Virus genome (UHGV): UHGV-0178829
Source of the DNA: a virus
Strand: one strand, 5' to 3'
DNA: 12,800 nt
Positions within the stretch are counted from its first letter, which is position 1. Each line of letters opens with the position of its first letter. Below the pieces are notes generated by a model. The model was not told the DNA's origin and searched no databases. It saw only the letters and a list, made by a program, of their open reading frames with translations. Below are positions 1-12,800 of this stretch, piece after piece. Both the position numbers and the translations under genes were made by a program.

Positions 1-53
1 CGCAGGTTCTCCCGTGCTAACGGTTCATCATCGACAATTAAGACTTTAATCAT
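1..53 (-). CDS. btsR: LytTR-family response regulator BtsR/YehT, first 17 codons only; gene continues beyond the window start
   Basis: Reverse complement of 1-53 reads ATG ATT AAA GTC TTA ATT GTC GAT GAT GAA CCG TTA GCA CGG GAG AAC CTG = MIKVLIVDDEPLARENL, a receiver-domain N-terminus matching remembered BtsR. The ATG (53-51) overlaps the TGA stop (52-50) of the upstream kinase gene. Confidence 0.8.
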   Translation of the reverse strand, partial: MIKVLIVDDEPLARENL

Positions 54-1735
54 GCCTCGTCCCTCCATGGTAGTCGTAACGTTATTCGGGTGTAACTATC
101 AGGCTCACAGGCGACGCTTATTCCATAGTCATCGCCAAACCGTTCACGTAAACGCTTATCCACCAGATTCATCCCCAGCCCACTGGCATTGGTTACCGGT
201 TGATACAAACCGGCATTGTCTTCGATCTCCAGCATCAAATGTTGCCCCTCACGTCGGGCGCTGATTGCCACTCGCCCTGTATCCAGCAGTTGTGATGTCC
301 CATGTTTAATGGCGTTTTCCACTATCGGTTGCAGGGTAAACGCGGGCAATTGCTGCTGGGATAATTCTTGCGGAATAGCAATGTTGACCTGCAACCGCGA
401 CTGGAAGCGCGCCTTTTCAATTTGCAGATAAGCATTCACATGTTCAATTTCGTCGGCGAGAGTAACAAACTCCGAAGGCCGCTTTAAGTTTTTGCGGAAA
501 AAAGTGGAAAGATACTGCACCAGCTGGCTGGCCTGTTCGCTGTCGCGGCGGATCACCGCTTTAATGGTGTTAAGCGCATTAAACAAAAAATGGGGATTCA
601 CCTGGGCGTGAAGCAGTTTGATCTCTGACTGGGTGAGCATCGCTTTTTGCCGCTCATATTGCCCGGCAAGGATCTGCGCCGAAAGCAATTGCGCAATCCC
701 CTCACCCAACGTGCGGTTGATTGAACTGAATAAACGGTTTTTGGCTTCATACAATTTGATGGTGCCCATCACCCGCTGATTTTCACCACGCAACGGAATT
801 ACCAGCGTCGACCCCAGTTTGCATTGCGGATGCAAAGAGCAACGGTAAGGTACTTCGTTGCCATCAGCGTAGACCACTTCACCGGTTTCAATCGCTTTTA
901 AAGTATAAGTTGAAGAAATCGGTTTGCCGGGTAAATGGTGGTCGTCACCAATTCCGGTAAAGGCCAGCAATTTCTCTCGATCGGTAATCGCGACTGCACC
1001 AATATCCAGTTCCTGATACAGCACCTGAGCCACTTTCATGCTGTTCACTTCGTTAAACCCCTGGCGCAAAATGCCTTCCGTCGAGGCTGCCACTTTCAGC
1101 GCAGTGGCAGAAAAAGCCGAAGTGTATTTTTCAAACATCGCGCGTTTATCGAGCAATATACGCATAAACAGCGCCGCGCCGACGGTATTGGTGACCATCA
1201 TTGGTGCAGCAATATTACTCACCAGACGCACCGCATCTTCATAAGGTCGGGCGATCGCAAGGATGATCAGCATTTGCACCATTTCAGCGACGAACGTGAC
1301 GGCACCGGCGGTAATGGGGTTAAAGACTTTATCAGTGCGCCCGCGGCGGATCAGGATGCTGTGTACCAGGCCACCGAGTAATCCTTCAACGATGGTCGAG
1401 ATCATGCAACTTAACGCGGTCATGCCCCCCATCGAATATCGATGTAAGCCGCCGGTCAGACCAACCAGCCCACCGACGACGGGACCGCCGAGTAAGCCGC
1501 CCATTACCGCGCCTATCGCACGGGTATTGGCAATAGAATCGTCAATGTGCAACCCAAACCAGGTGCCCATGATGCAGAAGATGGAAAAGACGATGTAGCA
1601 GAGAAATTTATGCGGCAGACGAACCGTGACCTGCATTAACGGTATGAATAATGGCGTTTTACTCATTAACCATGCAATGACTAAAAAAACGCACATCTGC
1701 TGAAGCAGCAGCAACACCAGATTAAAATCGTACAT
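50..1735 (-). CDS. btsS: LytS-type sensor histidine kinase BtsS/YehU (561 aa from the ATG at 1735; the track ORF begins 5 codons upstream at a GTG)
   Basis: Track ORF 50..1750. Translation shows multi-pass membrane N-terminus with GG-rich helices, a GAF-like middle, and a C-terminal kinase core (NPHFLFNALN H-box, ATPase motifs). Synteny with btsR immediately downstream. First ATG at 1735-1733 (MYDFNLVLLLL...) matches the remembered BtsS start. Confidence 0.9.
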   Translation of the reverse strand: MYDFNLVLLLLQQMCVFLVIAWLMSKTPLFIPLMQVTVRLPHKFLCYIVFSIFCIMGTWFGLHIDDSIANTRAIGAVMGGLLGGPVVGGLVGLTGGLHRYSMGGMTALSCMISTIVEGLLGGLVHSILIRRGRTDKVFNPITAGAVTFVAEMVQMLIILAIARPYEDAVRLVSNIAAPMMVTNTVGAALFMRILLDKRAMFEKYTSAFSATALKVAASTEGILRQGFNEVNSMKVAQVLYQELDIGAVAITDREKLLAFTGIGDDHHLPGKPISSTYTLKAIETGEVVYADGNEVPYRCSLHPQCKLGSTLVIPLRGENQRVMGTIKLYEAKNRLFSSINRTLGEGIAQLLSAQILAGQYERQKAMLTQSEIKLLHAQVNPHFLFNALNTIKAVIRRDSEQASQLVQYLSTFFRKNLKRPSEFVTLADEIEHVNAYLQIEKARFQSRLQVNIAIPQELSQQQLPAFTLQPIVENAIKHGTSQLLDTGRVAISARREGQHLMLEIEDNAGLYQPVTNASGLGMNLVDKRLRERFGDDYGISVACEPDSYTRITLRLPWRDEA

Positions 1736-1956
1736 ACCCGCAAACCACACTTCCCTTTAAAACGCGTAACATACATTGCCTGCGTTTAACTTTCTTTGAA
1801 CTCTTGCAGAAAAATGAGAATTCGTGAGTACGATCACTCAAAATCGCCTGGCAAAAATAAAATCACCCTATAGATGCACAAAAAACGGGCAAAACTACCT
1901 GGTTCGCAAAACTGCGTCTAAAGTTAAACCGGGACCTCGCGAGCAAGGGTGAGACG

Positions 1957-2025
1957 ATGGCGCTTTACACAATTGGTGAAGTGGCGTTGCTTTGTGATAT
2001 TAATCCTGTCACGTTACGCGCGTGA
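1957..2025 (+). pseudogene. mlrA: 5' fragment of mlrA/yehV (MerR-family curli regulator): 22 codons then TGA; resemblance to mlrA ends here
   Basis: ATG at 1957 encodes MALYTIGEVALLCDINPVTLRA followed by TGA at 2023-2025. This matches the remembered MlrA N-terminal HTH (MALYTIGEVALLCDINPVTLRAW...). Downstream sequence in all frames is unrelated to MlrA, and the track ORF 1949..2134 is in a different frame. Confidence 0.75.
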
Positions 2026-2148
2026 CGCAACATTTTTAAAAATCGACGAAGATCGTCCAGGAGCGCCATTTTTCAAGGGTTGGACAGATGATTCGTTTTC
2101 GATGTCGACGAACTTCGACGGATTTCGCCGATAAAAAGTGTCCCATAC

Positions 2149-2170
2149 ATGCCCCATAGATGCCCCATAG
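2149..2170. repeat. Perfect tandem direct repeat, 2 x 11 bp (ATGCCCCATAG ATGCCCCATAG), preceded by a third partial CCCATA copy (2142-2147)
   Basis: Read directly: tcccataC ATGCCCCATAG ATGCCCCATAG gcaat, about 125 bp inside the phage side of the mlrA junction. Confidence 0.6.
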
Positions 2171-2183
2171 GCAATATTACCAA

Positions 2184-2213
2184 TTGACACTGGTTATCCA
2201 CACAGCTAAAAAT
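2184..2213 (+). promoter_or_regulatory. Candidate sigma70 promoter of the dinI-like gene (TTGACA, 17 bp spacer, TAAAAA(T))
   Basis: TTGACA at 2184-2189 is a perfect -35. A 17-nt spacer is followed by the A/T-rich hexamer TAAAAA at 2207-2212. The promoter sits about 40 bp upstream of the dinI-like start and directly abuts the LexA box. Confidence 0.45.
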
Positions 2214-2218
2214 AACAC

Positions 2219-2234
2219 CTGTACATAACTACAG
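2219..2234 (+). promoter_or_regulatory. LexA (SOS) box CTGTACATAACTACAG (CTGT-N8-ACAG) over the predicted transcription start of the dinI-like gene
   Basis: Read directly. It conforms to the CTGT-N8-ACAG LexA operator pattern with an AT-rich spacer, lies just downstream of the -10, and is 15 bp upstream of ATG 2250. SD AGGAGGGGG at 2239-2247. Confidence 0.65.
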
Positions 2235-2249
2235 TTACAGGAGGGGGCT

Positions 2250-2498
2250 ATGCGTGTTGAGATCTGTATCGCTAAAGAAAAAATCAGCAAAATGCCGAAA
2301 GGTTCTGTTCCTGCTCTGCAGCAAGAAATGCTGCGCCGCATAGGTAAGCGATATGACGATGCAGATGTGATCGTTAAATCTGCCAGCAATGATGGACTCA
2401 CCATTTTAAGAGCCGTCGATAAAGAATCAGCACTGGAGTTCGTACAGGAAACACTACAGGAAGTCTGGCAAACCGCGGACGACTGGTTTATGCAATAA
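2250..2498 (+). CDS. dinI: DinI-family protein (prophage-encoded DinI homolog, 82 aa)
   Basis: Track [12 protein letters not shown]...[14 protein letters not shown] parallels E. coli DinI (MRIEVTIAK...LQETWESADDWF) in length and motifs. Strong SD, LexA box upstream, and a terminator about 90 bp downstream. Confidence 0.8.
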
Positions 2499-2589
2499 CG
2501 GGATCATAATCACTGTAATGACCTGTTTTGTATGACATTCTTAAAAGGCATAACAACGAGCTTGTCGTTTCAAGCGACTTCTTCTGGTT

Positions 2590-2616
2590 GGGGAGCCTGA
2601 GTGCTCCCCTTTTTTT
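2590..2616 (+). terminator. Rho-independent terminator downstream of the dinI-like gene; also abuts the stop of the convergent minus-strand ORF
   Basis: GGGGAGC (2590-2596), loop CTGAGT, GCTCCCC (2603-2609), then 7 T (2610-2616). On the minus strand the hairpin is preceded by an A-run and not followed by a U-run, so it is mainly a plus-strand terminator. Confidence 0.7.
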
Positions 2617-2912
2617 CAGCTAAAAATCAGCATACAGCCATACAATCCCGCACAGGCCACCACCGGCACCACAAAATCCATCAGACTGGCCACATTCCAC
2701 ACACGCGGATCAAAACCGCCCCACCACGGCATGTTCTGTCTGTGACCATCACCAAAACGCTTAATCCAGCGATATTCTGCCTGGGTATGTTCTCGGGCAA
2801 TAAAGAACGTACAACCCGCTATCGCTCCGTAAACCCAGTCACCGGTAATGCACCCGACCAGCCCCTGCACGGCTACTGCACAAATTGCATGAAGTATCGG
2901 CGTGATATCCAT
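2616..2912 (-). CDS. Hypothetical small membrane protein (98 aa, about 3 predicted transmembrane helices, Cys-rich); moron-like, function unknown
   Basis: Track ORF with ATG at 2912-2910 preceded by SD GGGGAG (TAAGGGGAGCAG-ATG). Hydrophobic stretches ITPILHAICAVAVQGLVGCIT, VYGAIAGCTFFIA and LMDFVVPVVACAGLYGCMLIF. Lies 9 nt downstream of the preceding ORF in the low-GC block. No recognisable homolog recalled. Confidence 0.6.
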   Translation of the reverse strand: MDITPILHAICAVAVQGLVGCITGDWVYGAIAGCTFFIAREHTQAEYRWIKRFGDGHRQNMPWWGGFDPRVWNVASLMDFVVPVVACAGLYGCMLIFS

Positions 2913-2921
2913 CTGCTCCCC

Positions 2922-3200
2922 TTAAAACCACCCCCTGAGCGGGCGCTCTGGTGTAACCACCCACTCACGGAACACGGATTCATCAAAGCCATCGTCAAGA
3001 AGACGAATATTAACAAAGTACCCTTCGTCTCGCGTGTATTCAGGCTCCCCGTCAGCAGAAACACCTGACTCACTGAACGTAAAACCAATCTCATCAACCA
3101 GAATGGCATTCTGCAGCTCTTCGTCCTCTTCCCAGTTAAGTTTCCTGAGAAATGCCCTGAAATCTGCTTTATCACTGAAACGCAACGTGAAATCTCTCAC
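2922..3200 (-). CDS. Hypothetical small acidic protein (92 aa), translationally coupled to the tail-fiber gene; positional candidate for a tail-fiber assembly chaperone
   Basis: Track ORF. Its only available start is GTG at 3200-3198, overlapping the tail-fiber TGA stop (GTGA); there is no in-frame ATG anywhere in the ORF. D/E-rich. It occupies the slot of P2 gpG/Tfa but does not resemble remembered gpG or lambda Tfa. Confidence 0.5.
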   Translation of the reverse strand: MRDFTLRFSDKADFRAFLRKLNWEEDEELQNAILVDEIGFTFSESGVSADGEPEYTRDEGYFVNIRLLDDGFDESVFREWVVTPERPLRGWF

Positions 3201-4987
3201 TCCACAACCTCCCCAAGCTGCGCATCTGTTAGCTCTTTATGCCAGAGACGAAAATTCCTCACATGCCCAAATAAATGGCGTAATCCTGCTGTAGTTTGTC
3301 CACCAATGCGAATGGTTGCTGTACTCCGGATATATTCCCATGTGGTTTTTGTTTCGCTGGATATACGCCCGTTACTTACTGCACATGTAGACTGATCTGA
3401 CTTTACACGCATCCCCATAACCATTTTTTTCAACGATGCGTTTTCGTTAACACGCCTATTTGATCCACCAATATCGCAATAAGGAAATCCGTCTGGCCCA
3501 TCTGCCGAAGATCCGAAGCCAAGAATAATAGCCGCTCCGGTTTGATGACCGCCGGTATCAAAAACACGTGGCGCTGCATTTGGCGTTTTATACCAGTTCT
3601 TATGTACCTCACAAAGAACCGTAAAAGGAAGATTATAAAGATTATTCTTAATTGGAACTGTAACTATATCGCTTGCGCGGGTCGCCGCCGTCGCTCCTGA
3701 TATAATAAAAGATGATACACAAGGCCCATCTTCTACTTGTGGGGTGGCCAGATAAATATAGTCACCAGATACGGTTGCCCCGCTCTGCTTAGGAGAATAC
3801 TGTATCTGAGAGCCTATTTTTAACTCCCCATCAATTGCCTGAATTGTTGCCTCTGCAAAAATCCATCCGGTAGCTTCGTCCTTTCTGACTCTCGCTGTAA
3901 TCCTTGAGGCAGCACCGCCTGTCATATTAATTTCAAGCGTTTGTGTATCAATATACGCATCACCAAGAAAAGTTGTTGCGCTACCGTCATATTTATCAAA
4001 CCGGATACGCAACCTTACCTGCAGTTCTGTTTTAAAACGACATGAGGTTGTCACGTGTTTATTATCGCCTGAGACATCAACTGACTTTGTTGCAGCAATT
4101 GATGCCATATTAATGGCTGAGGTTTGCCCAATCAGAGAATCGTTGCAGACAAACTTTCCATAGGTAAAACCAAAATTATCCGTCCCTGTTTCGGGCACAT
4201 CCATATTTGACGATCGCCCCCAACTGGCAGGGCTTTCCGAATTGAGCATGTAGTTTGTTCTTTGCCCCTCAATAAGCAGGCCATCACGTTCAAATCGTGG
4301 CTCGTCAATGGCAGCCTCTGTCAGCACACCAGATTTGTTAATATAGGTTGCTTTCGATGCACGTTTAAACTTAACAATCTTGTCGCCAGGCATCGTTATT
4401 TCATCGTCACCAATAACAATTTTTTTATATGACGGCGAAAAGCCCGTAATCATATCCAGTGAATCGTTAAACGGTATCCACACATCAGGCAGCGGCGGTA
4501 CAGACTCCTTTTCCTGCGCAACATATTCTTCAACATAGGCGCGGGTGGCGAGCACGACAGAGGGATCAACTTTCAGTTCGACAGACGAAGCACTGGAAAC
4601 CACAACAATCATGCGAATCGTCTGCGTGCGCCCGCTTCCCTCGGTGAGTACAGGCTTGTAGGTTTCGGGGCAGTTCGCCACGGCAATCATCACGCCGTCG
4701 CTGTCAAAAAGCCCAATCTCGCGGATCCAGAACCCCCCTTTATCTTCCGGGATAATCATCTCGGCGATAAGCTGGCTGGCATCAGACGCGCTGATGCTCA
4801 GTTGATTCAATGGGGCGCTGTATACCGTGTTCACCAGATTTTCCATGGAAGCCTCCGGTTCCGGCAGGCTGCCGCCGCCATCCCCCAGTTTCATGGTGGT
4901 GATGGATATTTTCGAGCCGCTGGCCACCGCCTTTGCCAGACGGGCGGCACCCTTGTCAGTCAGAACAGAAAAATATTTTACAGTCAT
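3197..4987 (-). CDS. Phage tail fiber protein (P2 gpH-like N-terminal domain; divergent C-terminal receptor-binding region ending in a LamG/concanavalin-like motif)
   Basis: Track ORF, 596 aa. N-terminal about 160 aa (MTVKYFSVLTDKGAARLA...ITTMKLGDGGG...IIPEDKGGFWIREIGLFDSDGVMIAVANCPETYKPVLTEGSGRTQTIRMIVVVSSASSVELKVDPSVVLATRAYVEEYV) aligns with remembered P2 gpH. The C-terminus ...GLRHLFGHVRNFRLWHKELTDAQL resembles the end of LamG-type jelly-roll domains. ATG at 4987 overlaps the upstream stop (ATGA). Confidence 0.85.
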   Translation of the reverse strand: MTVKYFSVLTDKGAARLAKAVASGSKISITTMKLGDGGGSLPEPEASMENLVNTVYSAPLNQLSISASDASQLIAEMIIPEDKGGFWIREIGLFDSDGVMIAVANCPETYKPVLTEGSGRTQTIRMIVVVSSASSVELKVDPSVVLATRAYVEEYVAQEKESVPPLPDVWIPFNDSLDMITGFSPSYKKIVIGDDEITMPGDKIVKFKRASKATYINKSGVLTEAAIDEPRFERDGLLIEGQRTNYMLNSESPASWGRSSNMDVPETGTDNFGFTYGKFVCNDSLIGQTSAINMASIAATKSVDVSGDNKHVTTSCRFKTELQVRLRIRFDKYDGSATTFLGDAYIDTQTLEINMTGGAASRITARVRKDEATGWIFAEATIQAIDGELKIGSQIQYSPKQSGATVSGDYIYLATPQVEDGPCVSSFIISGATAATRASDIVTVPIKNNLYNLPFTVLCEVHKNWYKTPNAAPRVFDTGGHQTGAAIILGFGSSADGPDGFPYCDIGGSNRRVNENASLKKMVMGMRVKSDQSTCAVSNGRISSETKTTWEYIRSTATIRIGGQTTAGLRHLFGHVRNFRLWHKELTDAQLGEVVE

Positions 4988-5760
4988 GAAAAAATCCTCA
5001 AAGAATCCTCCAGAAATACCACTGATGCTGTCAGGGTTCCGGTTGTGGCGGTCAGTTGCATCACCGCCTGTGGCTCCACGGTCACCGCATCATCGCCCGT
5101 AACCTGTAATCCCATGACAATCCCCGCATCGACAGATACCGACGGTGTCGGCGGGTAAATGGTGAGCATGTCGCCGTCAAAGAAAGCCGGAGATGCCCGG
5201 AACACCGAAACAGTCTCAACACCGGCAGAAGCGGCTGGCCAGATTGTTGTTTCACTGCCGTCGTGCATGCCGGAAAACACACGTGCGACTCCCTGCGTAT
5301 CCAGCATAATGTTCAGCGAGGCAAGGTGGCGGCTGACCGGACGGGCATCGTCGATCAGTCGTGTCAGCTCGGAGTACGTTTCCTCTGTGATACCCGCGTC
5401 CTGCACGCCAATATCAATGCGGAACGTGCCGCGCGGGTCGCCGTTCTGCCACCACTCCGTCACGTTAATGACATAGCCAAAGGGTTCAACCACACGCCTG
5501 ATGGCGCTGATGGTTCCCTTATGGCGGTGGATTGCCCAGGCATCACGGATCACCTGGCGCTTTGTTTCTTCCGTCCAGTCACGATCCCACCTGTCCACGG
5601 ACAGCGCCCACGCCAGATAAGGCAGCAGGGCTGCCGGGCAGGTGTCAGGATCCCAGAGCTGGTTAAGGCTGACAGGTAATGCTGACAACCGGGCGGTTCC
5701 CCGCTCCACGCAGCGCATGAAATCGCTGGCTGAAGGGGGGAGAAGTGACGGTTCACTCAT
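4984..5760 (-). CDS. Baseplate assembly protein (P2 gpI homolog) with a C-terminal extension of about 80 aa
   Basis: From the internal ATG at 5760: MSEPSLLPP...LWDPDTCPAALLPYLAWALSVDRWDRDW...KGTISAIRRVVEPFGYVINVTEWWQNGDPRGTFRIDIGV matches remembered P2 gpI (…LWNPDTCPANLLPWLAWAFSVDRWDEKW…). The track ORF extends to 5823 but that would overlap the J homolog by 70 nt. Confidence 0.85.
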   Translation of the reverse strand: MSEPSLLPPSASDFMRCVERGTARLSALPVSLNQLWDPDTCPAALLPYLAWALSVDRWDRDWTEETKRQVIRDAWAIHRHKGTISAIRRVVEPFGYVINVTEWWQNGDPRGTFRIDIGVQDAGITEETYSELTRLIDDARPVSRHLASLNIMLDTQGVARVFSGMHDGSETTIWPAASAGVETVSVFRASPAFFDGDMLTIYPPTPSVSVDAGIVMGLQVTGDDAVTVEPQAVMQLTATTGTLTASVVFLEDSLRIFS

Positions 5761-6649
5761 TGGTTCCCCCTGTGCTGACCGTGAACGATGTGCAGTACGC
5801 TGACTGCACATCACTGATAACAATATTCTGTGCGGGGCTGGTCAGTTCCACGCGCTGAACGCCCTGAACATGCAGTGCGGCCATGATGGCGGAGAGCGCG
5901 ACATCGCGACCGATTTTGCCCTGTTCGGCAAGCCAGGTTTCCAGATTGTTTCTGGCGGCATTCAGGATGGGTTCCGACTCCGGCCCCGGATAAAAGTAAA
6001 GCCGGGCATCAATCTGATACCGTATGATTTCTGCGCTCTGCACCGTCAGACGGTCACCGACCGGGCGAACGTCTTCGGCATTCAGCGCATTTCTGACCGT
6101 TGTCAGGAGTTCTTCGGTCGCCGTGCCGTCGCCTTCTGTGGACAACACTGTCACCACCACTTCCGCCGGTGCGGGGCTGGTTGCGCGCGCGTCCGCCACC
6201 TGACCGCTGGCACTGCGGGCAAAATATTCATACGCCCCGGTGGGACCGGCCACGCTGAGGCCATCAAATGCAGACTGCGCACGCAGCCGCAGGGCGGAGT
6301 CGCTTTCCATGACGGCCTCCGTGGTGTCCATGGCCGGTGTGATGACCAGCCGCGCGGTGTTCATGTTGGCAGCGAGGTTGTCCAGGTCATCACCTGTGGA
6401 ATGGCTCAGCATACAGGCCGCTGCGCCCTCATTAATGCGCTGGCGAAGCAGCAGTTCACGCAGCGCGAAAGCCTGGGCAATGACCGTGAGCGGTTCGGAC
6501 TCCAACGCCATGGCTGACCGGATGGCAGCCTGCTGTGTCTGTGGAAATGACGTAATGATGTCTTCTTTCACTTCCGCTAGGATGACTTCAAAATCCGGCG
6601 TTTCAATAATCTGTGGTGTCGGCAGTTCCGACAGGTCAACGGCTGGCAT
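5753..6649 (-). CDS. Baseplate assembly protein J (P2 gpJ homolog)
   Basis: Track ORF, 298 aa. MPAVDLSELPTPQ...VRNALNAEDVRPVGDRLTVQSAEII...LHVQGVQRVELTSP closely parallels remembered P2 gpJ along its whole length. Confidence 0.9.
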   Translation of the reverse strand: MPAVDLSELPTPQIIETPDFEVILAEVKEDIITSFPQTQQAAIRSAMALESEPLTVIAQAFALRELLLRQRINEGAAACMLSHSTGDDLDNLAANMNTARLVITPAMDTTEAVMESDSALRLRAQSAFDGLSVAGPTGAYEYFARSASGQVADARATSPAPAEVVVTVLSTEGDGTATEELLTTVRNALNAEDVRPVGDRLTVQSAEIIRYQIDARLYFYPGPESEPILNAARNNLETWLAEQGKIGRDVALSAIMAALHVQGVQRVELTSPAQNIVISDVQSAYCTSFTVSTGGTNE

Positions 6650-7001
6650 TGTCGCTCCTGAGTGTCAGTGTGTTCTGTACGGTTTCCAGGCTTTCTGTCA
6701 GTGTGCCGGTGAGGGTGATAACGGCTTTTCCGCCCGCCTCCCACTGAATGTCAACGGCATTCAGGGCGATGCGTGGCTCCCACTGTGTCAGGGCAATCAC
6801 CACGGCGCTCATGCACTGAAGGCGCGTGGTGGCATTCATCGGTGCATCCAGCAAATCCGGCAGCAGGCTGCCGTATTCCCGGCGCATCACCCGGCTGGCG
6901 AGCGGTGTTAACAGAATATCCCTCACGCTGTTCCACAGATGGTCCGTGTCGCTGAGCGTGCCGGTGGCCTCGGGGTTCATCCCCAGAAAACGGGCACTCA
7001 C
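6636..7001 (-). CDS. Baseplate wedge protein W (P2 gpW / gp25-like); GTG start
   Basis: Track ORF, 121 aa. (M)SARFLGMNPEATG...LTPLASRVMRREYGSLLPDLLD...WEPRI...VITLTG matches remembered gpW (MTARYLGMN...TPVGSRVMRRDYGSLL...). GTG at 7001-6999 overlaps the V stop (GTGA). Confidence 0.85.
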   Translation of the reverse strand: MSARFLGMNPEATGTLSDTDHLWNSVRDILLTPLASRVMRREYGSLLPDLLDAPMNATTRLQCMSAVVIALTQWEPRIALNAVDIQWEAGGKAVITLTGTLTESLETVQNTLTLRSDNASR

Positions 7002-7579
7002 TGCGGGCCTCCTGTGCTGTCACCGCCGCTCTTCACGCCACTGTGTTTGTGCGTGTGCAGCGTCACACCGTTTGAGGTGAAATCACCGCCGCTGTGCGAG
7101 ATACTGCCACTCATGGTTCCGCCTTCTGTCACCTCAATCGTTGTCGTCTTCAGATGGTTTGTGCAGGTGACGGTGGGGGTATCCAGCGTCACGCCTGTTC
7201 CGGCCTGAATGGTGGCAGTTTTGATTCCGCTGGCGCTCAGTGCGCCAGCGTCCGCATCGTAGCGGAACACCGCGCCGTCAGGCGCTGTAACCACGATTTC
7301 CGTCAGGCTGCTGCCGGGCGCCGGATGTTCGCTGCTCCAGAGACTGCCGATGACGGACGCGGTCGCGGGGTCGCCACCGATGCAGGCAATCATGACCTGT
7401 TCGCCCACGGCAGGCGGCAGCCAGACGCTGAACGCGCCCGCGCGTGGTGTGTTCCAGCGCAGCCAGTCGGTTTCCAGCTCTCCGCTGCGCACGCGAACGC
7501 GCCACGTTGTTTCGTCCACGGCAAAAATCACGCCCGTGCGGATGATATTTGCAAGCAGTCGCATGATTTCCGCTGTCAT
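6998..7579 (-). CDS. Baseplate spike/hub protein V (P2 gpV homolog)
   Basis: Track ORF, 193 aa. ...SGIKTATIQAGTGVTLDTPTVTCTNHLKTTTIEVTEGGTMSGSISHSGGDFTSNGVTLHTHKHSGV... matches the remembered gpV C-terminal region. ATG overlaps the S stop (ATGA). Confidence 0.85.
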   Translation of the reverse strand: MTAEIMRLLANIIRTGVIFAVDETTWRVRVRSGELETDWLRWNTPRAGAFSVWLPPAVGEQVMIACIGGDPATASVIGSLWSSEHPAPGSSLTEIVVTAPDGAVFRYDADAGALSASGIKTATIQAGTGVTLDTPTVTCTNHLKTTTIEVTEGGTMSGSISHSGGDFTSNGVTLHTHKHSGVKSGGDSTGGPQ

Positions 7580-8214
7580 CGTGCTGCACTCCCCAGGGAA
7601 CGGATAATCGCGTCACGCATCCGGCGTTCGTCGGCTGCGGTCACACCCAGCAGTTCACGCACCGGGTAGGTGGTCATCACGCCCGGTGTCACCTCGTCGC
7701 GTAACCCCGCCTGATGCACGCGGGCAATCCGCGCAGCCAGGCCATCAAAGCCCACCACAGCGCCTTCCGCATCTGAGCGCATTTTTAACCAGCGATATGT
7801 GCGAAGACGCGCGAACATCGGCGTGCTTTTCTTGCTGGTCTGGCGGGCAGACATGGACGATACAGCGAGGTATCGTTCAATATCATCGCGGTAAAACGTC
7901 CTCAGTGCGCCGCCACGGTCAGGGTCGCGCCCGATGATGGCGCGGCCTTTCCGGTAACGTTTGTGCCCCCACTGGCGCAGCGTGCGGACCTCGCCGTTCC
8001 AGACAAACTTCACCTCCCGGCGGGTGTGCATTACCTGCTGTTTTCGCGCCGGATACGGCGAACCGTCTGCGTTCTTCTGCGTACGGATACGCGCCTGCTG
8101 GCTCTGGCGCAGCGCCTGCCCGACAGCCCTCGCCGTGCGTGCACGTCCGGCGGTGGAAAGTCCGTTCAGGATGTCGCGGAAAACCGCGTCCGGGTCATGC
8201 GTCGTCGTGTTCAT
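7576..8214 (-). CDS. Phage virion morphogenesis / tail completion protein (P2 gpS family), 212 aa
   Basis: Track ORF at the gpS position between the R and V homologs. Basic protein with ATG at 8214 and an AAGGA SD. Family assignment is by synteny and general resemblance; it is longer than P2 gpS. Confidence 0.65.
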   Translation of the reverse strand: MNTTTHDPDAVFRDILNGLSTAGRARTARAVGQALRQSQQARIRTQKNADGSPYPARKQQVMHTRREVKFVWNGEVRTLRQWGHKRYRKGRAIIGRDPDRGGALRTFYRDDIERYLAVSSMSARQTSKKSTPMFARLRTYRWLKMRSDAEGAVVGFDGLAARIARVHQAGLRDEVTPGVMTTYPVRELLGVTAADERRMRDAIIRSLGSAAR

Positions 8215-8677
8215 CCGTCAAATCCTTAAAGGTCACATCCTCAACAATCAGCTCTCCCCAGGCTCCTGTCAGTGCGGCAGGCGGGCGGGGTTCCGGCAGG
8301 TGCACCGGATACAGTTCCCCCTGTTCATTGCGACAGACTTTCACGCGCTCGCGCACGGGAATTTCCAGTAACAGGTCGGTGCTGTCGTCGTCATTGACGG
8401 CAACGGAAAACTTAACGTCCTTGTTTTTCTCCGGGTTGAGCAGCAAATCCGGCTGGTTGTGCATGAGCCAGACAATCAGCGGCAGCATCAGCTCGTCGAT
8501 GTGTCCCGGAAAATCCATGACGAAGGCCACGAGCGTGTAACGGTAGACAAACGTCGGGGTTTCACCCGTGGTCTCAATACTTCCGCTTTCTGCAAACACG
8601 GTGAGTTTTTCCGGATTCGCGCGACACCACCGGGATGAGGCGGTGAGGGCTTCGCGCAGACGGTTCATTTTCAGCAT
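8195..8677 (-). CDS. Tail completion protein R (P2 gpR homolog)
   Basis: Track ORF, 160 aa. MLKMNRLREALTAS...YRYTLVAFVMDFPGHIDELMLPLIVWLMHNQPDLL resembles remembered gpR. Strong SD AAGGAGA 5 nt upstream of ATG 8677. Confidence 0.8.
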   Translation of the reverse strand: MLKMNRLREALTASSRWCRANPEKLTVFAESGSIETTGETPTFVYRYTLVAFVMDFPGHIDELMLPLIVWLMHNQPDLLLNPEKNKDVKFSVAVNDDDSTDLLLEIPVRERVKVCRNEQGELYPVHLPEPRPPAALTGAWGELIVEDVTFKDLTDEHDDA

Positions 8678-8686
8678 GACTTCTCC

Positions 8687-8980
8687 TTACGGTCGCATCC
8701 GGCGTTGTTGTTCGGTTGCTTTAATGGCTGCCTTGTCAGCGTTGCAGCTCTCCAGTGCGTCCAGCAGCCGGTCACTCCAGACGGCCAGTCCGCCCCACGT
8801 CAGCGGACGGGGCAGGGACGGCACCGGCGTTGGCTGTGTCAGACTTTCCGGCAGCGGTGCGTGCTGCGTCTGAGTGACCACGACGGGGCGCGGCGCGCTG
8901 TTGCAGGCGGTCAGCAACAGCGGCAGGCACAGCAGCAGCCGCGCACGGATTTTCCCGGAGTGTGTTGCGTATCTCTTCAC
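8687..8980 (-). CDS. o-spanin (Rz1/LysC-like outer-membrane lipoprotein), out of frame with and overlapping the 3' part of the i-spanin gene; proposed GTG start
   Basis: Within track ORF 8687..9133: ...KRYATHSGKIRARLLLCLPLLLTAC-NSAPRPVVVTQTQHAPLPESLTQPTPVPSLPRP... has a basic n-region, hydrophobic core, lipobox LTAC and a Pro-rich mature part. In-frame GTG at 8980-8978 is preceded by AGGAGGGAG. The upstream ATGs would give an implausibly long signal peptide. Confidence 0.55.
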   Translation of the reverse strand: MKRYATHSGKIRARLLLCLPLLLTACNSAPRPVVVTQTQHAPLPESLTQPTPVPSLPRPLTWGGLAVWSDRLLDALESCNADKAAIKATEQQRRMRP

Positions 8981-9218
8981 GGCGTTTTTCTCCCTCCTGA
9001 TTCCGGTGCTGCTCTGCGGCGCGGACCTGCGCCAGCAGGTCGCTGATGCCCCGGAGTTCCGCATGAAGTGCATCCACGGCGGCATTTGTTCCCGCCAGCG
9101 CCTGTTCGTGATATTCCCGGCGCGCCCGTTCATGCCCTGCCTGCCAGGCCAGACGCAGTGACACCAGATACAGCGCCCCCGAAAACAGGGCGACGACGGC
9201 GGCGGTGGTCAGCCTCAT
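8772..9218 (-). CDS. i-spanin (Rz/LysB-like; N-terminal TM anchor plus periplasmic coiled coil)
   Basis: Within track ORF 8772..9245, from ATG at 9218 (GGAG SD): MRLTTAAVVALFSGALYLVSLRLAWQ... then a charged helical region rich in A, R, E and Q. The ATG overlaps the lysozyme stop (ATGA). The o-spanin gene overlaps its 3' end, as with P2 lysB/lysC. Confidence 0.7.
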   Translation of the reverse strand: MRLTTAAVVALFSGALYLVSLRLAWQAGHERARREYHEQALAGTNAAVDALHAELRGISDLLAQVRAAEQHRNQEGEKRREEIRNTLRENPCAAAAVPAAVADRLQQRAAPRRGHSDAARTAAGKSDTANAGAVPAPSADVGRTGRLE

Positions 9219-9757
9219 TTCTGTTTCTCCACATCCCGCAGACACCAGGCGCGAAAATCGCTGCGGCGGTTAACCAGTCCCTGACTGCGCTTCCCGCCTG
9301 CATTCACAAAATCAGTGAGGCGGGCACACATCCGCGCCCAGTTATGCGCCTGTGCCTGTTTCCAGATGGTGGTGCGCTGGCGCTTACCGTTGCGGTCCCT
9401 GAACCACATCAGACCGGAGCACCCCAGATTGAAGGCTGCATCCGTCATCGCCTCGAAGGCCGACTGCGGCATGGCTGCCCCCTGAAAATTCTGGTTAATA
9501 CAGCTCTCCGCCCGCTGCATGTCATTCACCCAGCGACGGGCCACCTCCTGCTCGCTGTACAGGTGTTTCTGTACGTTCCCCGTGGAGCCGCAGCCCACGG
9601 TGGCAACACCCGCGATGTCCGTGTAGGGTGTGGCGCGGCAGTCTTCCCACGTGGCAATTTTTATCTGTGCCTCCTGTGAGGTGCGCAGTGCTTCAGGAGC
9701 CAGCGAGACACCCAGCGCCACAATCACGGCGGCGGCATATCGCTTAATGTTTTTCAT
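9215..9757 (-). CDS. Phage lysozyme (GH24, T4/P21-type endolysin) with an N-terminal hydrophobic segment (signal peptide or SAR domain)
   Basis: Within track ORF 9215..9841, from ATG at 9757: MKNIKRYAAAVIVALGVSLAPEAL... then WEDCRATPYTDIAGVATVGCGSTG (E-D-T catalytic pattern) and ...FVNAGGKRSQGLVNRRSDFRAWC, which parallel remembered P21 R21 lysozyme motifs. Confidence 0.8.
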   Translation of the reverse strand: MKNIKRYAAAVIVALGVSLAPEALRTSQEAQIKIATWEDCRATPYTDIAGVATVGCGSTGNVQKHLYSEQEVARRWVNDMQRAESCINQNFQGAAMPQSAFEAMTDAAFNLGCSGLMWFRDRNGKRQRTTIWKQAQAHNWARMCARLTDFVNAGGKRSQGLVNRRSDFRAWCLRDVEKQK

Positions 9758-10037
9758 CGTTATCCCGTTGCAGTGCGGCAAGCGCCCGTTGTTCACTTTC
9801 ATGAAGCCCGCGCGTTCCGGCCTGTGCCAGAATCTGTGCAATCAGCGCATTGCGGCGGACCTGCGCACGCTCCATGCGGCGACGGTGAAGCCAGCCCTGA
9901 AAGAGTGAAAGCGCACCCAGCAGCAGCCCGGCCAGCGCGATTTTTTCGCTGATGGTCATCGCGCCAATCGTGACCGCAGAGACGGAGGCGGCGAAGGCGA
10001 TGTGGTCGTAAATACTGCGAAAAAAACCTAATCCCAT
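9744..10037 (-). CDS. Putative holin (about 97 aa, two TM segments, charged C-terminal tail; pinholin-like topology)
   Basis: Within track ORF 9744..10187, from ATG at 10037 (the upstream part would overlap the gpX homolog): MGLGFFRSIYDHIAFAASVSAVTIGAMTISEKIALAGLLLGALSLFQGWLHRRRMERAQVRR.... It sits immediately upstream of, and overlaps by 14 nt, the lysozyme gene. Confidence 0.5.
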   Translation of the reverse strand: MGLGFFRSIYDHIAFAASVSAVTIGAMTISEKIALAGLLLGALSLFQGWLHRRRMERAQVRRNALIAQILAQAGTRGLHESEQRALAALQRDNDEKH

Positions 10038-10228
10038 AACTGCACCGTCTCCCGTGTTTTTTTCTCTTCCTGCTCCGGTAATTCCACTTCCTGTCCGGCC
10101 TCCAGAAAAATCTGTCCGCACAGCCCCGGATTGGCGGCCAGCACCTTTTCGGTCACGCCCTGCGTTGTGCCGTAGTGCCGGAAGCACAGCAGGTCAACGG
10201 TGTCGTCCTGTAATGCCTTCACCTTCAT
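10028..10228 (-). CDS. Tail protein X (P2 gpX homolog, LysM-like)
   Basis: From ATG at 10228-10226: MKVKALQDDTVDLLCFRHYGTTQGVTEKVLAANPGL...ELPEQE...VQLWD matches remembered gpX (MKTFALQGDTLDAICVRYYGRTEGVVETVLAANPGL...). The ATG overlaps the L stop (ATGA). The track ORF starts 2 codons upstream at a GTG. Confidence 0.85.
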   Translation of the reverse strand: MKVKALQDDTVDLLCFRHYGTTQGVTEKVLAANPGLCGQIFLEAGQEVELPEQEEKKTRETVQLWD

Positions 10229-10722
10229 CAGCACAGCCTCGCAAAGATGCGCGGTGCGCCCTGAATATCGGCAATGGCCCAGCGCACGTCGCGCCAGAGG
10301 TCACCGGTCTGGGCTTCCAGTGCGTCCGCTTTCCGGTCGCCCTGTTCGGTGGTGTCCACATCGCGCACGCGCTCCAGTATCAGGGCGCGGGTGGCGGCAT
10401 ACACCGCAAGACGGAAGCGGTGCACGTTGACGCTTTCGCCGTTCACGCGGGAAGCCGGAACGTCCGCCAGCGTGCGGTATCCGTCATTCATCTGCTGCGT
10501 CTGCCAGTTGCGCAGCTCACCGGTGACGTGTGCCACGGCTTCGGTTGCCGCGTGCATCAGGCGCGACGTGGTGGTGCGACCGGGCAGGCGCACGGCAAGA
10601 CGCAGCGCGCGCAGTTCTGTCTCCGGCCAGAAGTCGTCCGTGGTGATGCGTGCATCACCGTCGTCCGTGTCCGCGACATCCTCCGTCGCGGCAGTGATAC
10701 CGGGTTTTGCAATCATGCTCAT
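10228..10722 (-). CDS. Head completion/stabilization protein (P2 gpL homolog)
   Basis: Track ORF, 164 aa, in the gpL position between the M and X homologs. Acidic N-terminus (...DDFWPETELRALRLA...) and overall pattern resemble remembered gpL. SD GGAGG 7 nt upstream of ATG 10722. Confidence 0.75.
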   Translation of the reverse strand: MSMIAKPGITAATEDVADTDDGDARITTDDFWPETELRALRLAVRLPGRTTTSRLMHAATEAVAHVTGELRNWQTQQMNDGYRTLADVPASRVNGESVNVHRFRLAVYAATRALILERVRDVDTTEQGDRKADALEAQTGDLWRDVRWAIADIQGAPRIFARLC

Positions 10723-10753
10723 GACGAGCCTCCGTTAAAAAGTCAGGCGGTGG

Positions 10754-10801
10754 GCGAACGGTCAGAAGGTCGCGGAGTTAAAAAACCAGGTGACCGTTCG
10801 C
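10754..10801. repeat. Perfect 11-bp inverted repeat GCGAACGGTCA ... TGACCGTTCGC with a 26-nt spacer, in the intergenic region between the M and L homologs
   Basis: Read directly: 10754-10764 GCGAACGGTCA and 10791-10801 TGACCGTTCGC are exact reverse complements. Confidence 0.6.
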
Positions 10802-10841
10802 GCCGCCTGTCGCCGGGGCGAAGTCGGTATGCGTGAGAGTC

Positions 10842-11639
10842 TCACGCGGATTTTTTGCTTTTCCGTGTGGCAGTGGCTTTTGTGGCGCTCTTTTTGCCTG
10901 CCTTTTTCGTCACGGTTTTCGCGGTACTTTTGCCTTCCGCGTTGTTCTCCGCACCGTCGGTACTGGTCAGCTTTTTCACTGCACGGGACAGCGTGGCAAT
11001 CTCGCGCTTCACGCCCGCGTTCGGGTTCAGGTGCATCGCTTCGCGCAGCAGTTTCAATGATGAAGCCATACTGTCCGCATCGGTCAGACCACGGCGGGAA
11101 AAGGCGCACGCCTTGCAGAGTTTGGCGCGGACCTCGTCCGGCATGTCCCGACCGGCGATAATTTCCTGTAGCGTGTCCAGCGGGGCGATGTATCCGGACA
11201 AATCCGCGTCCTGGTCAGTGCCTGCCAGCGTCAGCACCGGGTTACAGATTTCCTCTGTCAGCAGCGTGGCGGCATCGCGCCCGAAGCTGTCCGGTGTGCT
11301 GAGGTTATGGCGTACCACGTACTCACCGATGCGCAGCGCCAGCGGCAAATCACCGCAGTCAACGGCCCAGACCATGAGGGTGACTATCACCTCATCCTGG
11401 CGTCCGCTGTCGCTCTCGAGCGTGCCGTCAATCCAGCCGGAAAAATCCGGCAGCAGCGTCTTTTTCAGTTCCGCTTTCGCTGCCTTTGACTGAATGCCTT
11501 TCAGTCGTGCCTGTGCCAGTCGCAGGCGATGCAGGATTTGTTCGTGAGCCGTGCGCACCGTCTGTGACTGACTGTCATCGGTCAGTCCGGCGCGTTGTGC
11601 CATCGTGCGCTGAAAATGCGCCTGTGCCGGTGTCAGCAT
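10842..11639 (-). CDS. Terminase small (endonuclease) subunit (P2 gpM homolog)
   Basis: Track ORF, 265 aa. MLTPAQAHFQRTMAQRAG...LLPDFSGWIDGTLE...DMPDEVRAKLCKA...NAGVKREIATL... and a Lys/Ala/Thr-rich basic C-terminal tail parallel remembered gpM (MTSPAQRHMMRV...DMPDEVRAKLHK...AGVKKEIERL...). Confidence 0.9.
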   Translation of the reverse strand: MLTPAQAHFQRTMAQRAGLTDDSQSQTVRTAHEQILHRLRLAQARLKGIQSKAAKAELKKTLLPDFSGWIDGTLESDSGRQDEVIVTLMVWAVDCGDLPLALRIGEYVVRHNLSTPDSFGRDAATLLTEEICNPVLTLAGTDQDADLSGYIAPLDTLQEIIAGRDMPDEVRAKLCKACAFSRRGLTDADSMASSLKLLREAMHLNPNAGVKREIATLSRAVKKLTSTDGAENNAEGKSTAKTVTKKAGKKSATKATATRKSKKSA

Positions 11640-11688
11640 TGTTCTCTCCTCTTACGGGCGGTCAGCGCCCGCCCGTGGTTCAGGTAAA

Positions 11689-12750
11689 TCAGTCTTCGTG
11701 ATGGCTTTCATCAGCCAGTTTCAGCCCCGTGATAAGGGCGCACTTGCCGAAGTCTTCCACCACCCACGCATCGTTGGAGGACTGATAGGTTGCGATGCGG
11801 TTGTAGTCCGGCTCTTCACGCATCAGACGACGTAATGCTCCCACCTGGTAGTAGATGGACAGGTTGTCGAACGAGGTGATGAGCAGCGCGTCTTTCGGGA
11901 AGAACGGCGCGAGATATACCGGCAGACCACCAATCAGGCGTGAGGAGGTAATCAACTGACCGGCCATCAGTTCCGTGTTCGGCGCGGCGGCACTCATGGC
12001 GTTAATGAGTGGCAGGCGCAGCGTGTTGAACAGGTCGCGTCCCATCATCACCACAAGGTCGGATGAATCCTTGTACCACTCATCCAGCAGTGATGAGCGC
12101 GCATCCTGTACCAGCGCGTCCGGGTTGTTGTACTTGCCTTTGTAGGTGACGGCGTTGTCCATATCGCGTGCCGTAATGGTGACATCAGACATCACGCGCT
12201 GGGCTGCATTCTGGCGGATGCTTTCCAGCCAGCCCACGCCACAGTCCTGCAACAGCGGGTTACTGCTGCGGTCGGACTTCACGGCGCGGGACGTGCCGTT
12301 GAAACCAATCATGATGCGATCAAGGGCGATACGGCGGGCAATCTGCGCGCTGACCCGAGCCTGAAAATCCGGGTGTGCGGACCACGCGTCCAGTTGTGCG
12401 TAGCTGATAAATGTGTCGTAGTTGACCTGCTCGCAGGCGTACTGGCGTGCCGCCAGCTCGTGGAGTGATGCCGGTTCGCGGCGCTCACTTGTACTGGTGT
12501 TCACACTGGCAGACGGACCGTTGATGCCGATCAGGACTTTTTCGCCTTTCTGGTCGGTCACACCGATGACGTTGATTCTTTGCAGCAGCTCGTCGCTCTG
12601 CTGAATGGCGTTTTCCATGCGCTGCTGCACGGCGGGCTGAACGTTAAAACGCTGAGCAAGCGCTGCGGGAGAAACATTGTTCATGCCCGCCTGCTGCTGC
12701 ATATACATCGCCAGAGCGCCACGGGTGGTGGATGAAAGAGTCAGGTTCAT
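11689..12750 (-). CDS. Major capsid protein (P2 gpN homolog)
   Basis: Track ORF, 353 aa. ...GFNGTSRAVKSDRSSNPLLQDCGVGWL...LVQDARSSLLDEWYKD..DLVVMMGRDL...LSIYYQ...VVEDF... matches remembered gpN (…AGFNGVKRAETSDRSSNPMLQDVAVGWL…). SD GAGGA upstream of ATG 12750. Confidence 0.9.
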   Translation of the reverse strand: MNLTLSSTTRGALAMYMQQQAGMNNVSPAALAQRFNVQPAVQQRMENAIQQSDELLQRINVIGVTDQKGEKVLIGINGPSASVNTSTSERREPASLHELAARQYACEQVNYDTFISYAQLDAWSAHPDFQARVSAQIARRIALDRIMIGFNGTSRAVKSDRSSNPLLQDCGVGWLESIRQNAAQRVMSDVTITARDMDNAVTYKGKYNNPDALVQDARSSLLDEWYKDSSDLVVMMGRDLFNTLRLPLINAMSAAAPNTELMAGQLITSSRLIGGLPVYLAPFFPKDALLITSFDNLSIYYQVGALRRLMREEPDYNRIATYQSSNDAWVVEDFGKCALITGLKLADESHHED

Positions 12751-12800
12751 GGTTAATCCTCAGAAATCACAGGCGGTGTAAGCAATGCCGCCGCCGGTTA

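Follow-up and report, generated by a model that had tools for sequence, protein, structure and literature searches.

We found that the 12,800-nucleotide (nt) stretch of the virus genome UHGV-0178829 analyzed here, which we call the window, likely spans a joint between two unrelated prophages, a lambdoid prophage in the host gene mlrA (yehV) and a P88-like prophage of the Peduoviridae, with a crossover lying inside a tail-fiber gene. That the window is composed of two prophages is, judging by sequence comparison, very likely, and there is a high probability that the joint is a real biological joint. An inversion specifically has about an even chance of being the event that made it. The apparent end of the P2-type late operon at the fiber would reflect a recombination joint that the window crosses inside the fiber gene, and the tail genes were probably displaced to a reciprocal joint rather than lost.

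A switch between two prophages inside a tail-fiber gene

The following two features carry the joint.

3197-4987, minus strand: hybrid tail-fiber gene, 596 amino acids (aa), frame intact (Pfam PF12571, phrog_1419, and alignments)
4451-4496, unstranded: crossover patch, 46 nt with one mismatch (4460) between the parent fiber genes (four-way alignment)

The hybrid fiber begins with the P2-type N-terminal domain PF12571 (aa 1-149, E = 7.5e-57), and aa 148-595 match positions 344-793 of phrog_1419. In nucleotide and protein alignments, approximately aa 1-178, i.e., the anchor domain and the start of a conserved motif, came from a P2-like H, and approximately aa 180-596 came from the distal cassette of a lambdoid Stf. 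The DNA at 4050-4505 was 99.3% identical to stf of the NRG 857C-type lambdoid prophages, versus 85% for the H alleles of P2-like prophages. The parental comparisons were ungapped and pairwise, supplemented by the four-way alignment; an earlier three-way MAFFT alignment had understated the identity at the right end of that alignment.

The four-way alignment placed the last site disagreeing with the P2-like parent at 4450 and the first site disagreeing with the lambdoid references at 4460, and beyond 4496 the lambdoid references were unrelated to the window. The switch thus lies inside sequence common to both partners, the 46-nt patch, which ranks among the three longest identity tracts of the parental alleles. 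Only one exact match between these alleles is longer than the 36-nt run of the patch; elsewhere in the shared region (2672-4500), these alleles were only 60 to 85% identical. Among the complete E. coli genomes compared, none combined the lambdoid allele left of 4450 with the T at 4460. Because of this and of the parent-specific sites at 4450 and 4460, the switch is most plausibly assigned to the 9 nt at 4451-4459, or else to a heteroduplex over the patch, and extends at most over 4451-4496. The patch encodes most of the motif PPLPDVWIPFNDSLDM, which starts at aa 164, the point past the phage-specific anchor domain at which conserved sequence first appears.

The two sides of the window had separate relatives. 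A megablast search against 5,426 complete E. coli genomes split it into two overlapping match families: positions 1-4500 matched chromosomes with a lambdoid prophage beside btsS, and positions from about 3330 to 12800 matched a "P2 family" prophage. Positions 4451-12800 had no mismatches in 8,350 nt to the P2-like prophage of strain SCU-172. On the other side, positions 2100-2900 were 100% identical to the right end of the lambdoid mlrA prophage in MS 196-1, and positions 2100-3650 were approximately 100% identical to the lambdoid mlrA prophage in SCU-172.

In a homologue search covering 5.8 billion protein clusters, the distal cassette followed N-termini of three or more kinds (PF12571, PF08400, and others), and the boundary between anchor and cassette is thus a recurrent natural exchange point. 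The anchors seen in front of the cassette (aa 164-596) were PF12571 with or without PF03406, the lambdoid PF08400, and those of proteins annotated with PF14749, some of which are plasmid-borne in Escherichia marmotae. The lambdoid stf allele of the window is itself a mosaic, being of the NRG 857C type from about aa 164 to 480 and of the SCU-172/MS 196-1 type from about aa 480 to 596.

Tail-fiber cassettes have reportedly been exchanged horizontally among unrelated phages, as in P2 H, lambda Stf, and Mu/P1 S. The window resembles such exchanges in that the switch falls at the boundary between anchor and distal cassette, several N-terminal domains precede the cassette, and the reading frame is kept. 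However, after a cassette swap the recipient's own sequence resumes downstream, whereas the window runs on to a lambdoid attR and the host. Since the sequence continues through attR into host DNA and never comes back to P2-like DNA, it points to a single crossover joining two chromosomal or replicon segments.

Contents of the lambdoid and P2-type arms

The features from the host flank to the fiber gene, i.e., from position 1 to about 4455, were as follows (ORF, open reading frame; att, phage attachment site).

1-53, minus strand: 3′ end of the host gene btsR (yehT) (position from the MS 196-1 annotation)
50-1735, minus strand: host gene btsS (yehU), sensor kinase (Pfam 5TM-5TMR_LYT, His_kinase, GAF, and HATPase_c; annotated as btsS in relatives)
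1957-2025, plus strand: mlrA′ (yehV′), which reads MALYTIGEVALLCDINPVTLRA and then stops (first 22 codons, followed by a stop made by the prophage end)
2005-2024, unstranded: att core of mlrA/yehV-integrating lambdoid phages, attR side (20/20 bases equal to the annotated attachment site of VT1-Sakai)
2184-2236, plus strand: promoter-like site (TTGACA, 18 nt, AAAAAT) and LexA box, 5′ of dinI (promoter scan and direct reading)
2250-2498, plus strand: DinI-like gene (Pfam DinI, E = 6.7e-17)
2590-2616, plus strand: terminator-like GC-rich hairpin and T run, between dinI and the convergent fiber operon (terminator scan)
2616-2912, minus strand: small ORF, 98 aa, hydrophobic ends, lambdoid allele of phrog_1443, function unknown (PHROG E = 1.9e-48)
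2922-3200, minus strand: small acidic ORF, 92 aa, lambdoid allele of phrog_1361, function unknown (PHROG E = 4.7e-39)

The host part (1-2030) was 99.9% identical to many E. coli chromosomes. The prophage cuts mlrA after codon 22, with the ATG at 1957 and the stop at 2023-2025, and the same stretch is named truncated yehV′ in the VT1-Sakai annotation. The att core overlaps the sequence recorded in YYZ-2008 as a "direct repeat due to prophage insertion". The LexA box (CTGT-N8-ACAG) occupies 2217-2236, and its position and those of the promoter and dinI match the SOS box, promoter, and dinI in the VT1-Sakai annotation. The DinI-like gene was approximately 100% identical to the gene adjoining mlrA′ in MS 196-1 and SCU-172. 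The 98-aa ORF was 100% identical to its counterparts in the mlrA prophages of these two strains but only 52 to 78% identical per 100-nt window to the P2-like copy; the 92-aa ORF was 99 to 100% identical to the lambdoid copy of SCU-172, as against 56 to 64% per 100-nt window to the P2-like copy.

This end therefore has mlrA interrupted at the att core and a dinI-like moron with an SOS box facing a convergent fiber operon, as do the mlrA prophages of VT1-Sakai/Sp15, the YYZ-2008 Stx1 phage, MS 196-1, and SCU-172, which share the att core, truncated mlrA′, promoter, LexA box, dinI-like gene, and convergent stf operon. The layout of att, promoter, LexA box, and dinI is that of VT1-Sakai and YYZ-2008, and the whole end including the small ORFs and fiber is that of MS 196-1 and SCU-172; the Stx1 phages VT1-Sakai and YYZ-2008 have different genes between dinI and stf. 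Where the window departs from the yehV/mlrA lambdoid prophages is upstream of the distal fiber. In MS 196-1 and SCU-172, an Stf N-terminal domain, lom, and J come before the distal fiber. In the window, the Stf N-terminal domain (PF08400), lom, and J are absent 5′ of the distal fiber, and a P2-like H N-terminus and the P2-like baseplate genes I and J stand in their place. Taken together, the matches identify the att core, LexA box, dinI, two small ORFs, and approximately 417 fiber codons as the right end of a lambdoid prophage in mlrA (yehV).

The two small ORFs accompany the distal fiber cassette in both the lambdoid and the P2-like prophages, at the position expected for tail-fiber assembly (tfa) genes. 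The phrog_1361 product looks soluble, and the phrog_1443 product has hydrophobic N- and C-terminal segments with a subthreshold holin_8 match; they may be fiber chaperones or membrane morons. In the host flank, the btsS allele was 99.9% identical to those of O145:H28 and VR50 strains, but at positions 600-1500 of the window, a stretch of about 900 nt, it differed by 2 to 5% from the alleles of SCU-172 and MS 196-1, with flanks nearly identical in all. This divergent stretch looks like a recombination tract in a core gene beside a prophage hotspot.

The P2-type arm, from about 4455 to 12800, comprises the start of the hybrid fiber gene and the following genes.

4984-5760, minus strand: I, gpI-like baseplate protein, 258 aa (Pfam Tail_P2_I, E = 1e-52, aa 7-142; identical to SCU-172)
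5753-6649, minus strand: J, baseplate (Pfam Baseplate_J)
6636-7001, minus strand: W, baseplate (Pfam GPW_gp25)
6998-7579, minus strand: V, baseplate (Pfam Phage_base_V/Phage_spike/Apex)
7576-8214, minus strand: S, tail completion (Pfam Phage_tail_S)
8195-8677, minus strand: R, tail completion (Pfam P2_Phage_GpR)
8687-9133, minus strand: LysC/Rz-like spanin (Pfam LysC)
9215-9757, minus strand: lysozyme (Pfam Phage_lysozyme)
9744-10037, minus strand: holin (PHROG family phrog_1350)
10028-10228, minus strand: X (Pfam Phage_tail_X)
10228-10722, minus strand: L, head completion (Pfam Phage_GPL)
10842-11639, minus strand: M, small terminase (Pfam Phage_term_smal)
11689-12750, minus strand: N, P2-family major capsid (Pfam Phage_cap_P2)

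All P2-type genes from N to I matched Pfam above the gathering score except the holin, which had a PHROG match only. Consistent with the original prediction, made from the DNA letters and an ORF listing, the Pfam and PHROG scans and the ORF listing confirmed a P2-type late series from N to H, entirely on the minus strand, followed by no sheath, tube, or tape-measure gene before the bacterial junction, which had been placed accurately at about 2026. Neither the ORF listing nor the Pfam scans found sheath FI, tube FII, E/E′, tape measure T, U, D, or ogr anywhere in positions 1-12800. Between the fiber stop (3197) and the mlrA break, there were only the two small ORFs and the dinI-like gene that had been described, and no ORF of at least 40 aa was homologous to sheath, tube, tape-measure, D, or ogr. 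Tail genes and ogr, which adjoin the fiber module in a P2-like late cluster, do not do so in the window, and its content alone cannot build a contractile tail, as had been proposed.

Other parts of that prediction did not hold. It had taken the element inserted in mlrA for a P2-type prophage, whereas the right end, by its att core, LexA box, dinI, small ORFs, and distal fiber, is lambdoid; the other, lambdoid prophage accounts for all DNA between 2026 and about 4455, and with it for three quarters of the gene called H. The order it had expected after the fiber (H/G, Z/fun, FI, FII, E, T, U, D, ogr) is P2's own, and the P88-like lineage has a convergent U-T-E-tube-sheath block followed by D and ogr.

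The layout of that lineage could be read in complete relatives. The P2-like prophage of SCU-172 is complete and lies between ihfA and btuC. After H, it has the two small ORFs, two further small hypothetical ORFs, the convergent U-T-E-(E′)-tube-sheath block, D, ogr, and hok/gef, and on its other side O, P, Q, ParM, a partition gene, a replication endonuclease, and an integrase. The same layout was seen in phage P88 (genus Xuanwuvirus) and in a relative in AR_0085 that is 94% identical and occupies the flk/pdxB site. The late order N-M-L-X-lysis-R-S-V-W-J-I-H is common to the window, P88, and the SCU-172 and AR_0085 prophages. In the complete relatives, the convergent tail block follows the fiber module and is itself followed by D, ogr, and hok/gef, and ParM and a partition gene are present; ogr is annotated in the SCU-172 and AR_0085 prophages but not in the P88 record. 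Tail genes are thus expected within about 1.5 kb after the fiber module in this lineage, whereas the window lacks the entire tail module and has lambdoid DNA in its place. The major capsid protein was only 64 to 66% identical to those of P88-group phages, and the P2-like parent therefore represents a P88-like but distinct lineage of the Peduoviridae, not the same genus-level group.

Several further observations concern this arm and its relatives. In the gpI-like ORF (4984-5760), Tail_P2_I covers aa 7-142 only, leaving a C-terminal extension of about 100 aa without explanation. NCBI flags the gpI-like gene of SCU-172 (identical) and that of AR_0085 (a relative) as a pseudogene "missing C-terminus"; the reading frame is nevertheless open as far as the H start codon. 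The GC (guanine plus cytosine) content was about 57 to 65% in the P2-like arm, about 50% in the host part, and about 43 to 47% in the distal fiber, the sharp step coinciding with the crossover/homology boundary. The high value in the P2-like arm suggests a Peduoviridae lineage not long adapted to E. coli. ParM, the partition protein, and the hok/gef toxin gene in P88 and the complete relatives are maintenance modules of a plasmid-like kind, here carried by integrated prophages. The AR_0085 relative, in addition to its different integrase and site (flk/pdxB), has an S8 peptidase and AAA ATPase pair beside the portal gene.

Parental arrangement and possible routes to the joint

Both kinds of parent are present in SCU-172, a strain other than the source, as inverted repeats at separate chromosomal sites. 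Its lambdoid stf is on the plus strand (1,798,607-1,800,667) and is followed by the small ORFs, dinI, mlrA′, and btsS; its P2-like H is on the minus strand (2,313,525-2,315,306), inverted relative to stf and 513 kb apart. An inversion between these repeats yields btsR(−), btsS(−), mlrA′(+), dinI(+), orf(−), orf(−), distal fiber(−)::H N-terminus(−), I(−), J(−)...N(−), which is the exact gene order and strands of the window. SCU-172 was ruled out as the parent strain itself, since it departs from the window by about 2% in btsS and also in stf at 3650-4460, and it serves instead to model how the parental prophages were arranged.

We infer from this that, in a SCU-172-like genome with fiber genes as inverted repeats about 0.5 Mb apart, a homology-guided crossover in the 46-nt patch, where the phage-specific anchor meets the common distal cassette, probably joined the two prophages and produced the in-frame hybrid fiber gene, and may have inverted the segment between. 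A divergence-tolerant recombinase, either RecA or a prophage Rad52-like enzyme, would have made the crossover. The reciprocal product would carry U-T-E-tube-sheath-D-ogr behind lambdoid J, lom, and the stf N-terminus, with the latter (PF08400) fused at PPLPDVWIPFNDSL to the distal part of a SCU-172-type H. The P2-like prophage would then be split and no longer excisable as a unit, with its tail genes retained.

Both the rearrangement and the exchange have precedents. Large chromosomal rearrangements bounded by prophages, inversions included, occur in E. coli O157:H7 (Fitzgerald et al. 2021, PMC8743559). As proposed here, they arise by recombination between repeated prophage segments, inverted repeats lead to inversion with hybrid prophages at both ends, and the mlrA/yehV site is involved. 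The O157:H7 partners, however, are lambdoid prophages with long, highly similar regions, whereas those in the window belong to different families (a Peduoviridae myovirus and a lambdoid siphovirus) and share a diverged fiber cassette with a 46-nt patch, and here an inversion is the proposed rather than the observed event. Experiments have also shown that homology-driven mosaics between lambda and defective prophages, including at stf/tfa, form on diverged sequence and need phage Rad52-like recombinases (De Paepe et al. 2014, PMC3945230).

Several points weigh against this explanation. The reciprocal joint and the sequence beyond 12800 lie outside the view of the window. No locus in the 5,426 complete E. 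coli genomes spanned the joint in a megablast search with the junction region; junction patterns of 90, 67, and 61 nt had no match in the GTDB species representatives, JGI metagenomes, or IMG/VR; an exact look-up found no record of the hybrid fiber protein; and the 5.8 billion protein clusters held no full-length relative of it above 82% identity. This particular hybrid fiber is thus new to the collections searched. At the switch, the two parents match perfectly over only 9 to 46 nt. The btsS backbone is about 2% diverged from that of SCU-172, so that the P2-like integration site in the source strain may differ, and the P2-like relative in AR_0085 uses another site (flk/pdxB). Finally, a 0.5-Mb inversion within one replichore may be costly.

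The lack of a second copy of the joint could also be accounted for by an assembly chimera, in which both prophages are intact in the source and were joined by the assembler through their common fiber sequence. The joint is unique in every collection searched and lies in a repeat common to two prophages that co-occur in one genome (SCU-172), and its intact frame is expected for any join in homologous sequence and so is no argument for a real event. We nevertheless consider such an artifact unlikely, because the parents are only 60 to 85% identical over the common region, the parent-specific sites that bracket the switch (4450 and 4460) are just 9 nt apart, and the longest perfect run there is 36 to 46 nt, shorter than the k-mers or overlaps that modern assemblers use for contig joining; moreover, no genome has a lambdoid allele with T at 4460. 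A joint identical to the observed one would likewise result from a nested prophage, where a circular P88-like genome underwent one Campbell-type crossover at the 46-nt patch with stf of a resident lambdoid mlrA prophage. The whole 34-kb P2-like genome would then lie inside the lambdoid prophage, its tail genes about 25 to 30 kb right of the window and followed by the stf N-terminus, lom, and J. No large inversion is needed in this case, a recent arrival would agree with the lack of any mismatch between the P2-like arm and SCU-172, and phage Rad52-like recombinases act on short or diverged homology (PMC3945230). Its probability appears low all the same: the crossover, a rare event, would have to occur in the short time for which the phage genome is circular, while resident prophages have unlimited time; both prophages reside at separate sites in SCU-172; and no such structure was found in the 5,426 complete E. 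coli genomes. It is similarly doubtful that a P88-like phage entered without its own att through an stf crossover, leaving a myovirus nested in a siphovirus prophage. Were this true, there would be two reciprocal chimeric fiber genes with receptor-binding cassettes swapped between phage types, and viable particles could take either chimera out of the cell and have a changed host range.

The same joint would also follow from a deletion between direct repeats, had a P2-like prophage been located near the mlrA prophage with co-oriented fiber genes, so that all DNA between them was lost, the tail genes and the lambdoid prophage's left part included. Losing the mobility functions of both prophages is a common route of prophage decay, but in the only genome showing both parents the repeats are inverted and 513 kb apart, a deletion of such a span would remove essential genes (e.g., thrS, infC, and pheST), and a P2-like insertion site near mlrA is not known, making this deletion quite improbable. 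The scenario closest to the original prediction, a P2-type prophage in mlrA that lost everything from sheath to ogr by internal deletion and survives as a head-plus-baseplate remnant, accounts for the missing tail genes between H and mlrA′ and for the intact remaining late genes. Yet the att core, dinI with its LexA box, both small ORFs, and about 417 fiber codons are lambdoid and approximately 100% identical to lambdoid mlrA prophages, the P2-like relatives integrate elsewhere (ihfA/btuC and flk/pdxB), and the break is a homologous switch and not a deletion scar; we regard this as highly improbable. That prediction had offered either a deletion remnant or tail genes located elsewhere, and it is the latter that is better supported, with the homology-guided switch in the fiber gene speaking against a simple internal deletion. 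We also set aside the site-specific integration of one prophage into another, since the two prophages meet within homologous coding sequence rather than at an att site. Another possibility, that a cassette was swapped earlier and a crossover then took place in a long, perfectly matching stretch, is made less likely by the homologue search, which found no intact P2-like phage with the hybrid fiber allele.

Meaning of the joint for prophage biology

We consider the joint between the lambdoid mlrA prophage and the P88-like prophage to be real but of a familiar sort, a further case in which two prophages recombined at the boundary of a tail-fiber cassette, unusual only in linking a myovirus-type and a siphovirus-type prophage via a very short identity tract. 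An annotation of the region as a defective P2 remnant in mlrA would be wrong for two prophages at once, and the case is a warning for automated prophage callers that synteny up to the fiber and a nearby bacterial junction need not mean the same phage. It also shows that prophages which are otherwise unrelated can recombine across a shared fiber cassette. If the event was an inversion, it would be an E. coli rearrangement of about 0.5 Mb bounded by prophages of different families and nucleated by less than 50 nt of identity, through which both prophages would have been split and immobilized with all their genes kept.

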